DNA of 64,000 nucleotides, taken from the NCBI RefSeq assembly GCF_056746865.1, contig NZ_CM163382.1; one strand, 5' to 3'. Below, one piece after another: positions 6,251 through 9,623 of the stretch. The position numbers and the translations under genes were made by a program. The notes under the pieces are model-generated. The model had not been told where the DNA came from. It saw nothing but the letters and a program-made list of their open reading frames with translations, and did no database searches. The first letter of the stretch is position 1; every line of letters begins with the position of its first letter.

Positions 6251-7633
6251 ATGAAAGAAAACAATAGCCGCCGTGAATTTCTGAGCCAGAGCGGTAAGAT
6301 GGTCACCGCCGCCGCGCTGTTTGGTACGTCTGTGCCGCTCGCCCATGCGGCAGTCTCTGGCACAATCCATTGCGACGCGAATAACACCATGAAAATCACT
6401 GACCCGCACTACTATCTCGACAACGTGCTGCTGGAAACCGGTTTTGACTACGAAAACGGTGTGGCGGTACAGACCCGCACGGCGCACCAGACCGTAGAGA
6501 TTCAGAACGGCAAAATTGTTGCCCTGCGCGAGAACAAGCAGCATCCGGACGCCACGCTGCCGCACTATGACGCTGGCGGTAAGCTGATGCTGCCCACCAC
6601 CCGCGACATGCATATTCATCTCGACAAAACCTTTTACGGCGGGCCGTGGCGCTCGCTCAATCGCCCGGCAGGCACCACCATCCAGGACATGATCAAACTC
6701 GAGCAGAAAATGCTGCCGGAGCTGCAACCGTACACTCAGGAACGAGCGGAAAAACTGATCGATTTATTGCAGTCGAAAGGCACTACCATTGCCCGCAGCC
6801 ACTGCAATATCGAACCGGTTTCCGGCCTGAAAAATCTGCAAAATTTGCAGGCGGTGCTGGCGCGACGTCAGGCGGGCTTCGAGTGTGAAATTGTCGCCTT
6901 CCCGCAGCACGGTTTGCTGCTGTCGAAATCGGAACCCTTAATGCGTGAAGCGATGCAGGCGGGGGCGCATTACGTCGGCGGTCTGGATCCGACCAGTGTT
7001 GATGGCGCGATGGAAAAATCCCTCGATACCATGTTCCAGATTGCGCTGGACTACGACAAAGGCGTTGATATTCACCTGCACGAAACCACTCCGGCAGGCG
7101 TGGCAGCCATCAATTATATGGTTGAAACGGTGGAGAAAACGCCGCAACTGAAGGGCAAGCTGACCATCAGCCACGCCTTTGCGCTGGCAACGCTCAATGA
7201 GCAACAGGTAGATGAACTGGCGCACCGGATGGCGGCGCAGCAAATTTCTATCGCCTCGACGGTGCCGATTGGCACGCTGCATATGCCGCTCAAACAGTTG
7301 CACGACAAAGGCGTAAAAGTGATGACCGGCACCGACAGCGTTATCGACCACTGGTCGCCTTACGGCCTGGGCGACATGCTGGAAAAAGCCAATCTGTACG
7401 CGCAGCTCTATATTCGTCCTAACGAACAGAACCTCTCCCGCTCGCTGTTTTTAGCCACTGGCGATGTATTGCCGCTCAACGAAAAAGGCGAGCGCGTGTG
7501 GCCCAAAGCGCAGGATGATGCCAGCTTTGTGCTGGTGGACGCCTCCTGTTCCGCCGAGGCGGTGGCGCGTATCTCGCCGAGAACGGCGACGTTCCATAAA
7601 GGGCAACTGGTGTGGGGGAGTGTGGCAGGTTGA
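6251..7633 (+). CDS. yahJ: amidohydrolase-family deaminase with twin-arginine (Tat) signal peptide
   Basis: ORF track 460 aa; N-terminus SRREFLSQSG...AAALFG...AHA; metal-dependent amidohydrolase-like HxH region (DMHIHLD). Confidence 0.85.
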   Translation: MKENNSRREFLSQSGKMVTAAALFGTSVPLAHAAVSGTIHCDANNTMKITDPHYYLDNVLLETGFDYENGVAVQTRTAHQTVEIQNGKIVALRENKQHPDATLPHYDAGGKLMLPTTRDMHIHLDKTFYGGPWRSLNRPAGTTIQDMIKLEQKMLPELQPYTQERAEKLIDLLQSKGTTIARSHCNIEPVSGLKNLQNLQAVLARRQAGFECEIVAFPQHGLLLSKSEPLMREAMQAGAHYVGGLDPTSVDGAMEKSLDTMFQIALDYDKGVDIHLHETTPAGVAAINYMVETVEKTPQLKGKLTISHAFALATLNEQQVDELAHRMAAQQISIASTVPIGTLHMPLKQLHDKGVKVMTGTDSVIDHWSPYGLGDMLEKANLYAQLYIRPNEQNLSRSLFLATGDVLPLNEKGERVWPKAQDDASFVLVDASCSAEAVARISPRTATFHKGQLVWGSVAG

Positions 7634-7894
7634 TACGCATTTGAAACGCCTGCAATGGTGAATCGTAAGAGATTTAAAGCCCCAGGGAGTGGGGCGGGAA
7701 TGGTTTGTTAATGAATGATCCTGAACTTTATAATCTCCCGGCATAATTTCCAGGGGATTATTTGAGAGAAATACACAAAAGTGAGTTTTAACAATATTTA
7801 TCAAGCCATAAATGTGACCGGCTTCGGATAAAAAAGATTAAACATAGAAAAACCAATGATCCTCTTGCTGATGGTTATCAACAGTAATTAAGAT

Positions 7895-8338
7895 GTGATT
7901 TTTTTCCGTAATCGCGAAAATATTCTCATGACCATAAAAGAAAAAATCTCACAAAAATATCCCCATGCTTCCTTTTGTACTTTTGGCGATTCAGCAGCGT
8001 TGGCCGATCACCTCGCAACGTTGATTGCGACAGGTGTTAAAACAGCTTCCTGTGGTTCGCTGGCGGGATGTATTGAAGACAACGCATTTCCGATGATTGG
8101 TGAGTATAAGATTGTAGAAAATAGCCGTGGTGAGCCTGTCTGTGTTATCAGAGTGATTGGCCTGCATTTACTGCGCTTTTCTGATGTCACCGCGGAGCTT
8201 GCCCGTAAGGAAGGTGAAGGTGACCTCAGTCTTGAATATTGGCGTAATGAACACCGTCGTTTTTTCCAGGCAGAAGGATGCTATTCACCCGAAATGGACG
8301 TTATCTTTGAAGAATATGCCCTTATTGACGTTGTGTAG
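7895..8338 (+). CDS. ASCH-domain (PUA-like fold) protein
   Basis: ORF track 147 aa; GxK motif (ATGVKTASCG); real start may be ATG at 7928; no strong Shine-Dalgarno at either. Confidence 0.55.
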   Translation: MIFFRNRENILMTIKEKISQKYPHASFCTFGDSAALADHLATLIATGVKTASCGSLAGCIEDNAFPMIGEYKIVENSRGEPVCVIRVIGLHLLRFSDVTAELARKEGEGDLSLEYWRNEHRRFFQAEGCYSPEMDVIFEEYALIDVV

Positions 8339-8588
8339 ATAACTATTTTTCTACGCGAAATAAGCTCACAAACATAAAATATCGCTAATTTTGTTTATTT
8401 TGCTATTTTTTACGTGATGAATGTCACACTTATTATTGCTGCCCGTTTTGTCCATATTTATAACCAAATTTTTAATAGCTGCCTGAAATAGGGCTGTTTA
8501 TTCTGCATAAAAATATTCGAAAATTCTTATTCTCTCCAGCGCGCTAATTTGGGCGAACACTTCCTGACTACCCTGCAATGAGGCTGAA

Positions 8589-9575
8589 ATGATGAATAAA
8601 CGTTTTGTTATCAATATGGTGTCTTCGCTGTTATTAGGCGCTGCGCTAATTTCTGCGCCGCTCCAGGCAGCGGAAAAAGTCGTGGTGAATATCTCTAAAG
8701 TCGATGGTATGCCGTGGTTTAATCGCATGGGCGAAGGTGTGGTCGAGGCGGGTAAAGCCTTTGGTGTTAATGCGTCACAGGTGGGGCCTTCAAGTACTGA
8801 TGCTCCGCAACAGGTTAAAATCATTGAGGATTTAATCGCCCGTAAGGTTAATGCAATTACAATTGTGCCAAACGATGCCAACGTGCTGGAACCGGTATTC
8901 AAAAAAGCGCGAGATGCCGGAATTGTGGTTCTGACCAACGAATCCCCCGGTCAGCCAAGTGCTAACTGGGATATCGAAATCATTGATAACGAAAAATTTG
9001 CCGCTGAATATGTTGAACATATGGCGAAACGCATGGGTGGCAAGGGCGGCTATGTGATTTACGTGGGTAGTTTGACCGTGCCGCAGCATAACTTATGGGC
9101 TGACTTGCTGGTGAAATACCAGAAAGAGCATTACCCGGATATGCATGAAGTTACCCGCCGCATGCCGGTTGCCGAGAGTGTGGATGACTCACGTCGTACC
9201 ACACTGGACCTGATGAAAACCTATCCTGACTTGAAAGCGGTTGTCTCCTTTGGTTCAAACGGTCCGATTGGCGCGGGACGTGCAGTGAAAGAGAAACGGG
9301 CGAAAAATAAAGTCGCAGTCTATGGCATGATGATCCCTTCACAGGCGGCATCACTGATTAAAAGTGGTGATATCACCGAAGGGATTACTTACGATCCGGC
9401 CTCTGCAGGTTACGCACTCGCGGCCGTCGCCAGCACGTTGCTGAAGGGTGAAGAGATCAAACCTGGATTAGAAATGCAGAATCTGGGGAAGGCCGACGTA
9501 GATATAGATAAGCGAATTATCCGTTTCCATAAGGTACTGCTGGTCAACAAAGACAATATCGACTCACTTTATTAA
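8589..9575 (+). CDS. periplasmic sugar-binding protein of ABC transporter (PBP type 1, LsrB/RhaS-like)
   Basis: ORF track 328 aa; cleavable signal peptide (MMNKRFVINMVSSLLLGAALISAPLQA); GAGG Shine-Dalgarno upstream. Confidence 0.75.
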   Translation: MMNKRFVINMVSSLLLGAALISAPLQAAEKVVVNISKVDGMPWFNRMGEGVVEAGKAFGVNASQVGPSSTDAPQQVKIIEDLIARKVNAITIVPNDANVLEPVFKKARDAGIVVLTNESPGQPSANWDIEIIDNEKFAAEYVEHMAKRMGGKGGYVIYVGSLTVPQHNLWADLLVKYQKEHYPDMHEVTRRMPVAESVDDSRRTTLDLMKTYPDLKAVVSFGSNGPIGAGRAVKEKRAKNKVAVYGMMIPSQAASLIKSGDITEGITYDPASAGYALAAVASTLLKGEEIKPGLEMQNLGKADVDIDKRIIRFHKVLLVNKDNIDSLY

Positions 9576-9623
9576 TCCATTTCTTCGGGGCGAAAGCCCC
9601 GATTCTTATTGCCAGGGGATGTT

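Follow-up and report, generated by a model that had tools for sequence, protein, structure and literature searches.

An independent ASCH-fold gene in the yah region of Escherichia coli: a probable small hydrolase of an uncharacterised branch

The DNA analysed here (hereafter the window) is a stretch of 64,000 nucleotides from contig NZ_CM163382.1 of RefSeq assembly GCF_056746865.1. It comprises the yah region of an Escherichia coli chromosome, and over its segment 7600-8600 strain 118UI and numerous others have an identical sequence (100%). The annotated genes follow one another in the order betABIT, pdeL, yahB-yahG, yahI, yahJ, a gene encoding an ASCH-domain protein, the four genes of a sugar-type ABC transporter, and yahK. 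The ASCH ORF is already annotated, under the RefSeq label "ASCH domain-containing protein"; it was missing from the original annotation of O157 Sakai, and was only later added there as ECs_5377. As the first-pass annotation of this DNA had described, the gene stands alone upstream of the transporter, being separated by 294 bp from yahJ on its 5' side and by 250 bp from aauA on its 3' side, all on the same strand. It has a GC content of 0.453, and the leader in front of it is AT-rich, as had likewise been described, with a GC content of 0.367 vs 0.567 in yahJ and 0.523 in the whole window. The gene had also been placed at the edge of an island; its position next to the transporter is correct, but the 'island' is better regarded as sequence that has been deleted in K-12. 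The features of the locus are collected in Table 1.

Table 1. Coordinates of the ASCH-domain gene and of the features that surround or compose it, in window positions.
Feature	Coordinates	Strand	Remarks
AT-rich leader/intergenic region	7634..7927	+	GC 0.367; without Shine-Dalgarno; sigma-70-like TTGTTA-18-TATAAT at 7705-7734
GC-rich hairpin GCCCCA-GGGAG-TGGGGC	7679..7695	+	3' of the yahJ stop; no U-tract
In-frame upstream extension from GTG	7895..7927	+	Allele-specific; outside the conserved gene
ASCH-domain gene	7928..8338	+	136 aa + stop; RefSeq WP_000152768.1; ECs_5377 in O157 Sakai; PGAP CDS
ASCH octapeptide G36-V-K38-T-A-S41-C-G43	8033..8056	+	Candidate catalytic Lys and Ser
EGEGD subfamily signature E95-G-E97-G-D99	8210..8224	+	E95 aligned to catalytic Glu74 of YqfB
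Paau reporter fragment	8283..8590	+	Primers of Supplementary Table 3 of PMC11127945 mapped onto the window
aauABCD (Z0415-Z0419, O-island 17)	8589..13025	+	SBP, ATPase and two permeases; PGAP; neighbour, separate unit

The extent of the gene differs from that first proposed. An ORF of 147 aa that opens with GTG (7895-8338, plus strand) is present in the window as had been stated, but the conserved CDS comprises 136 aa from the ATG at 7928. The GTG at 7895 lies in frame in the window allele only, because a T-run is 2 bp shorter there; owing to this 2-bp indel it is out of frame in four other alleles. In E. coli W, where the GTG frame was read directly, it runs into a TAA, and it is also out of frame in CE10 and in Escherichia sp. 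E2593. The homologues are nearly all 136 aa long, and the 19 orthologues that were aligned all share the start Met that corresponds to ATG 7928. The GTG was thus rejected as a start, and the PGAP start, the Met shared by the orthologues and the displaced frame of the GTG in other alleles together define the gene as 7928-8338, with a product of 136 aa.

The earlier assignment of the product to the ASCH/PUA-like domains proved right on the grounds of its Pfam score, its similarity to solved structures and its predicted fold. A Pfam search, which had been named as a check, detected the ASCH profile PF04266 at 78.2 bits (gathering score 21.2; E=8.7e-22; positions 5-102 of the 103 of the profile), and such a score shows that this is not a chance ORF. 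A sequence search of the PDB matched only EF3133 of Enterococcus faecalis (1T62, 6e-19) and an ASCH domain of Lactobacillus crispatus (3S9X, 2.6e-16). The AlphaFold (AF2) model has a pLDDT of 97.4 and a pTM of 0.88. When this model was compared with the PDB by Foldseek, 3S9X and 1T62 ranked first (TM 0.81-0.86), followed by YqfB (9KYF/9KYH; target TM 0.82-0.84, rmsd 2.3-2.4 A) and then by PH0355 and ZmASCH, and 17 of the 17 best matches were ASCH proteins. The gene encodes a real ASCH-fold protein that consists of a single ASCH (PUA-like beta-barrel) domain.

Within the ASCH family, the protein is a member of the EF3133/YhfF branch (COG4405, formerly DUF984), an uncharacterised branch whose members close to the E. 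coli protein carry the JGI name 'uncharacterized protein YhfF'. An exhaustive search over 1.84 billion representative proteins, with a cut-off of E<=1e-3, yielded 1,756 clusters of relatives at 50% identity. EF3133 and 3S9X, the closest to the ASCH protein by both sequence and fold, are 26-29% identical to it in the structural alignment and share with it the signature FGD...GxK[T/R]A[T/S]C[S/G]...EGEGDxSLxYW...H..FF, but are ~20 residues longer; they are structural-genomics entries without an assigned function, and are uninformative on mechanism. Literature on the function of COG4405, YhfF, 1T62 or 3S9X was searched for, and nothing was found beyond the use of 1T62 as a modelling template; nor were biochemical, transcript or protein data on the ASCH protein or its branch found in the literature. 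With a pI of 4.9 and a net charge of ~ -8 the protein is acidic, and it is presumably cytoplasmic, since no N-terminal signal peptide is evident in its sequence.

A characterised protein with the same ASCH beta-barrel exists in E. coli itself, namely the N4-acetylcytidine/N4-acylcytosine amidohydrolase YqfB (1TE7, 9KYF-9KYH). Both proteins are small, acidic and stand-alone, but they share only ~12% identity and differ in length (103 aa in YqfB vs 136 aa), and K-12 possesses yqfB while lacking the ASCH gene. In YqfB, Thr24 serves as the catalytic nucleophile, Lys21 supplies the base and Glu74 the acid, while Arg26 forms the oxyanion hole; the K21A, T24A and R26A variants are inactive and E74A is 100- to 1000-fold less active, whereas T24S is as active as the wild type (PMC6972931). 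The ATGVKTASCG motif, on which the first-pass annotation had based its assignment, is present in the ASCH protein and contains the octapeptide listed in Table 1. In comparison with the canonical GxKxx[E/T/S]xR, this octapeptide retains G36, K38 and S41, but has Gly43 in place of the final Arg, as is typical of the branch. A profile alignment by hhalign, for which the YqfB sequence agreed with 1TE7/9KYF, pairs K38 with K21, S41 with T24, G43 with R26 and E95 with E74; its probability is only 39%, and the equivalence of these residues therefore rests on a weak profile alignment combined with the shared fold. The T-x3-A-x2-E spacing is the same in the two proteins.

According to this alignment (hhalign 39%), the Thr/Ser-Lys-Glu set that characterises YqfB-type enzymes has its counterpart in S41, K38 and E95. 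The essential Arg26, on the other hand, has none, as the aligned residue is Gly43, and His70 of YqfB is Leu in the ASCH protein. Column counts from an alignment of 81 diverse relatives, with the consensus FGD...GxKTATCS...EGEGDxSLxYWR..H..FF, show what the branch has in common: L29, K38, E95 and E97 are invariant in 81/81, position 41 is T or S in 81/81, D99 occurs in 78/81, and position 43 is S, G, W, C or A, with Arg in 0/81. In addition, Glu97, Asp99, Trp105 and His109 are conserved residues of the subfamily that go beyond those of YqfB.

By analogy with YqfB, we infer a small-hydrolase function for the ASCH protein, with amidohydrolase or deacylase activity the likeliest. Ser41 would act as the nucleophile, Lys38 as the base and Glu95 as the acid, in a triad homologous to Thr24-Lys21-Glu74 of YqfB, and stabilisation of the transition state would perhaps be provided by Glu97, Asp99, Trp105 and His109 instead of Arg. 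Because the Arg oxyanion hole is replaced by Gly/Ser, both the stabilisation of the transition state and the substrate are probably different from those of YqfB. Among 20 long family members examined, fusions were found with GNAT acetyltransferases (3/20), cupins (2) and DUF2007 (2), and other fusion partners are PLP enzymes, GATase, RidA, histidine phosphatase and a glyoxalase-fold domain. Together with the pI of 4.9, these partners suggest that the protein acts enzymatically on small molecules and is not a reader of nucleic acids, and a small N-acylated metabolite or a nucleobase/nucleoside is a more likely class of substrate than a nucleic acid.

More remote ASCH proteins differ from the present one at the decisive positions or in their activity. 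Those with the GxKxxExR motif (TthASCH 2DP9, EOLA1, TRIP4-ASCH and archaeal ASCH), reported to be erasers of tRNA ac4C, have the same domain and an activity-essential Lys, but their motif has Glu at position 6, where Ser/Thr stands in the present branch, and the terminal Arg has been kept. In a recent survey, 19 of 19 diverse ASCH proteins deacetylated ac4C and removed it from tRNA, and those bacterial members in which the last motif position is substituted were left out (bioRxiv 10.64898/2026.02.27.708502). The class left out by that survey is exactly the EF3133/YhfF branch. ZmASCH of Zymomonas mobilis (5GUQ/5GUS) also has the ASCH fold (Foldseek E ~1e-3, TM ~0.5-0.6), but is far more distant (8-11% identity) and is a single-strand-specific ribonuclease without nucleoside amidohydrolase activity. 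As to the 'alternative N4-acetylcytosine route' of PMC6972931, the ASCH gene was ruled out as a candidate, because that route was seen in DH10B, a K-12 strain, which lacks the gene.

The ASCH protein might instead be a non-catalytic PUA-like 'reader' of a modified base, nucleoside or nucleic acid, as has been proposed for EVE/YTH/ASCH domains, and we consider this rather unlikely. PUA-like/ASCH domains were first predicted to be RNA-binding, nucleic acids are bound by ZmASCH and TRIP4-ASCH, and the Arg on which catalysis by YqfB depends is absent from the protein. However, an acidic protein of this charge is unlike a nucleic-acid reader, and the absolute conservation of a Lys, a Thr/Ser and two Glu in the pocket-forming motif of the 81 relatives looks catalytic. 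Moreover, every ASCH protein so far tested in the 2026 survey had deacetylase activity, and no effector is fused to the protein or conserved beside its gene. A role in defence finds no better footing, as the protein had no match among the PADLOC models and no conserved neighbour that could serve as an effector.

The distribution of the gene within Escherichia bears on its relation to the transporter. K-12 lacks both the ASCH gene and aau, but retains scars of them: it matches the window up to 7695, then at 8291-8360 (48 bp from the 3' end of the ASCH ORF and 22 bp beyond it), and then again from 12954, a segment in which ~74 bp from the 3' end of the final permease gene survive and are labelled a partial pseudogene by PGAP. 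In the unclassified Escherichia sp. E2593, the ASCH gene and its leader are intact and aau is deleted, giving the order yahJ-ASCH-yahK. The aau deletion of E2593 shares its right-hand junction with K-12, and the left junction of K-12 contains a 20-bp insert that is otherwise seen in E2593, which suggests that the K-12 haplotype arose from a state with the ASCH gene and without aau. The ASCH gene and aau have been lost by two separate, adjacent deletions. These deletions were independent, and the region is an ancestral one that was not inserted, whereas O-island 17, which contains aau, has been described as horizontally acquired in EHEC. Of 5,426 complete E. coli genomes, 2213 carry the ASCH-specific segment (scored at >=80% coverage), and the number that carry aau is likewise 2213. 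The near-identical carriage within E. coli fits tight physical linkage of adjacent deletions, and for that reason is not evidence of a shared function.

The transporter next door is a published one, Aau (Z0415-Z0419, O-island 17). Along its whole length, the binding protein encoded in the window aligns with PDB 9I1M (E=1.4e-213). Only L-arabinose induces Aau, by way of AraC, and fitness in the gut requires the system (PMC11127945); it binds D-ribulose with a Kd of 2 µM vs 598 µM for L-arabinose, and the imported D-ribulose is phosphorylated by AraB (PMC12307932). Neither PMC11127945 nor PMC12307932 mentions the ASCH gene. The host used for Aau complementation, TUV93-0, derives from EDL933, and the O157 genomes in our search carry the ASCH gene; the published complementation is therefore probably no test of whether the ASCH gene is dispensable. 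In an RNA-seq table of PMC11127945, 'Z0414, hypothetical protein' appears among the L-arabinose-induced entries, with a 3.7-fold increase. Z0414 is the tag directly before Z0415, its candidate identity is either the ASCH ORF or yahJ, and it constitutes the sole, tentative lead on expression.

A functional link between the ASCH gene and this transporter, which had been left open at first, can now be answered mostly in the negative. It is improbable that the ASCH protein is an accessory of Aau, either processing or sensing something linked to the imported pentose or being co-regulated through AraC and L-arabinose. Their adjacency on one strand, with no predicted terminator in the 250 bp between them, their equal carriage in E. 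coli and the induction of Z0414 would all agree with such a role. The Paau fragment, however, covers the last 56 bp of the ASCH ORF and the whole ASCH-aauA spacer, and the AraC-responsive promoter it contains thus lies 3' of all the rest of that ORF, so that the ASCH gene is not transcribed from the aau promoter; an AraC-like half-site at 8440-8456 within the fragment is not significant as a match on its own. Aau is in this way a separate transcription unit, and its plain pentose substrates are handled by AraB and offer no amide to cleave (PMC12307932). The intact ASCH gene of E2593 exists without aau, and two adjacent deletions carried on the same haplotype account for the covariation in E. 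coli.

In the loci covered outside Escherichia, the two do not occur together. The co-occurrence analysis, another check that had been proposed, used a scan profile built from 19 closer sequences and covered 80 ASCH loci of other species among the matches listed, mostly from Enterobacterales with some from Pseudomonas. An orthologue of YahJ, YahI, YahG or Aau lay within 8 kb in 0/80 of these loci, and the most that 2/80 contained was a paralogous binding protein of 26% identity, located on the opposite strand at a distance of over 3 kb. When all flanking ORFs (within 5 kb, 80 loci) were clustered, no family exceeded 10 loci, and the flank families that do recur (SDR, LysR, the iclR/aceK region) reflect the shared synteny of related genera; the neighbourhood of the ASCH gene differs in almost every genus that carries it. 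A DUF6998 gene near the ASCH gene in Yersinia canariae and Pseudenterobacter was dismissed as a coincidence, since it occurs in 0/80 loci and is absent from the window. From the other side, four-gene cassettes orthologous to aau, with binding proteins 74-79% identical, were found in Atlantibacter, Providencia, Yersinia and Mannheimia in four different contexts, with an ASCH gene near 0/4 of them; two of the four adjoin AraC-type regulators together with FGGY kinase/araBA genes, which fits the pentose role of the transporter.

The gene would be expressed either under the control of its AT-rich leader or through transcription that reads on from yahJ. The leaders of E. coli and Escherichia sp. 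E2593 are conserved at ~90%; promoter-like matches in the leader are not above chance (2 found vs 2.5 expected from shuffles). On neither side of the gene, toward yahJ or toward aauA, was an intrinsic terminator found, matches being no commoner than in shuffles, and the interval 7500-8700 gave no Rfam match at E<=1. The hairpin 3' of the yahJ stop (-19.6 kcal/mol, z=-2.7) is invariant in five aligned alleles, and the left breakpoint of the ASCH deletion in K-12 falls just 3' of it. As first reported, a Shine-Dalgarno sequence is absent before both candidate starts, GTG 7895 and ATG 7928, the sequence 5' of the latter being cgcgaaaatattctc; an SD-like motif occurs 4-17 nt upstream in 56/72 orthologues from other species. 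The start region is A/U-rich and weakly structured (-8.4 kcal/mol), and is compatible with initiation that would be SD-independent and probably weak.

Because the Shine-Dalgarno is missing and the gene has been lost from 59% of complete E. coli genomes, the ASCH gene is dispensable and perhaps poorly expressed. That it is a decaying, effectively silent gene, left over untranslated in E. coli, would accord with these two features, with the truncated ASCH variants that occur in protein clusters and with its having been overlooked in the original Sakai annotation. We nevertheless regard this as quite improbable. The ORF is intact and was annotated as a CDS in 24/24 full-coverage genomes sampled across the ranking, the residues of the catalytic signature are all retained, and the A/U-rich start suits translation without a Shine-Dalgarno. 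In comparison with E2593, the gene shows a dN/dS of 0.21 at a dS of 0.24 (18.5 synonymous vs 15.5 non-synonymous differences), and the substitution pattern thereby points to purifying selection.

It is very improbable indeed that the ASCH gene is the last gene of a yahDEFGIJ unit and acts with YahJ, for instance by deacylating a base that YahJ then deaminates: the gene does lie on the same strand after yahJ with only the U-less hairpin between them, and the best NCBIfam relatives of YahJ include cytosine deaminases, the activity that YqfB feeds in ac4C salvage, but YahJ, YahI or YahG occurs near none of the 80 listed loci of other species, K-12 keeps a complete yah cluster while lacking the ASCH gene, and the SRREFL twin-arginine-like N-terminus of YahJ suggests a periplasmic protein, whereas the ASCH protein has no signal peptide. 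The ASCH gene is independent both of the Aau ABC transporter and of the yahDEFGIJ cluster.

Taken as a whole, the observations are best explained by an independent ASCH-fold gene whose product is probably a small hydrolase acting on a substrate other than that of YqfB, an explanation that we favour with some reserve. A broader and more tentative possibility, to which we would give distinctly less than even chances, is that the EF3133/YhfF branch constitutes an unrecognised class of very small hydrolases, in which the Lys-Ser/Thr-Glu core of YqfB is kept, the EGEGD/Trp/His residues replace the Arg oxyanion hole and the substrate is not ac4C but, for example, an N-acylated metabolite, such that the enzymes might be deacetylation partners of GNATs.

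For the window itself the finding is of little importance, as the ASCH gene was already annotated and its neighbour has been published. The scars in K-12 mean that O-island 17 is absent there through deletions, and its phylogenetic distribution is accordingly to be read differently. The Arg-less ASCH branch was skipped by the 2026 survey, so that a dispensable gene in E. coli offers an easy entry point to it; if the branch is indeed a class of small hydrolases, this gene would be a convenient, dispensable model for its activity.

Published work treats O-island 17 as a horizontal acquisition in EHEC. Comparison with the K-12 locus (L002) shows that two separate deletions removed the ASCH gene and aau from K-12, each leaving a gene end behind, namely the final 48 bp of the ASCH ORF (window 8291-8338) and ~74 bp from the 3' end of the final permease gene of aau, the latter annotated by PGAP as a partial pseudogene. 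With two deletions and retained gene ends, O-island 17 is therefore missing from K-12 by deletion. An intermediate haplotype, yahJ-ASCH-yahK, is found in Escherichia sp. E2593 (L008 7400-9000), in which ASCH is intact and the aau deletion has its right junction in common with K-12. E2593 also carries a 20-bp insert, CTATCTGAATATGAGTGTGT, 3' of the yahJ hairpin (columns 62-81 of A3, the alignment of Escherichia alleles), and the K-12 junction has this insert with one difference. The intermediate haplotype and the common insert thus suggest that the K-12 state derives from an ASCH+/aau- ancestor.

Feature coordinates in the window and in compared loci
Feature	Sequence	Coordinates	Description
yahJ	window	6251-7633	amidohydrolase, NCBIfam PRK06846, distantly cytosine-deaminase-like
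GC hairpin GCCCCA-GGGAG-TGGGGC	window	7679-7695	46 nt 3' of yahJ stop codon; conserved
K-12 ASCH deletion	window	7696-8290	relative to L002 2700-3120
K-12 aau deletion	window	about 8361/8436-12953	relative to L002 2700-3120
AraC half-site-like TGCCCGTTTTGTCCATA	window	8440-8456	2 mismatches to TAGC-N7-TCCATA
ECs_5377, 'hypothetical protein', the ASCH gene	L097 (O157:H7 Sakai)	9398-9808	between ECs_0373 (yahJ) and ECs_0374
DUF6998 gene near ASCH	L004	9843-10736	
DUF6998 gene near ASCH	L006	5641-6519	

The hairpin, which lacks a U-tract, lies in a 66-nt stretch of -19.6 kcal/mol (z=-2.7); it is unchanged in five Escherichia alleles and also kept in K-12, where the ASCH deletion begins just 3' of it, past the 20-bp insert. 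The AraC-like half-site lies within Paau, the mapped AraC-dependent reporter fragment, and just 3' of the left boundary of the deletion that removed aau in K-12 and E2593. Across the whole window, matches of this kind are no rarer than chance would give (35 found against 40.8 expected).

The window has an intact Aau ATPase gene (9609/9624-11108, 494-499 aa). The O157 Sakai annotation gives this gene only as the shortened CDS ECs_0375 (L097 11400-12578), and in EDL933 it is split (Z0416-7), which matches the published statement that Aau is non-functional in the EDL933-derived TUV93-0 (Aau paper). Elsewhere, the orthologous cassette adjoins araC-araB-araA and a codB/codA-like pair in Providencia stuartii (L094 6034-17935), and is flanked by an AraC-family regulator and an FGGY kinase in Mannheimia (L096 7954-15026); both contexts agree, independently, with the published pentose/ribulose function of Aau. 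The N-terminus of YahJ, MKENNSRREFLSQSGKMVTAAALFGTSVPLAHA, is a twin-arginine-type signal sequence, and hence suggests a periplasmic enzyme.

Members of the ASCH branch outside the window (P0230, P0233, P0256, P0179, P0192, P0191, P0205 and others) include fusions to GNAT acetyltransferases (3), cupins (2) and DUF2007 (2), and single fusions to PALP, an aminotransferase, GATase, RidA, histidine phosphatase, glyoxalase, GT2, a 4Fe-4S domain and an LPG-synthase membrane domain. Some of all these fusions may have arisen from faulty gene calling in metagenome assemblies. A DUF6998 gene lies <2.5 kb from ASCH in Yersinia canariae and Pseudenterobacter, the sources of the two homologues closest outside Escherichia; this vicinity is probably coincidence, since a tblastn search of the window and the 80 other loci with the Yersinia canariae copy gave no match.

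The original Sakai annotation missed the ASCH gene, as ECs_5377 is a tag added late. Under EDL933 tags, the 'hypothetical protein' Z0414, directly preceding aauA (Z0415), is listed as induced 3.7-fold by L-arabinose (adjusted p 1.45e-08; PMC11127945 supplementary file 3). If Z0414 is the ASCH ORF rather than yahJ, the gene would thereby gain its first transcript evidence, and a hint of co-induction.
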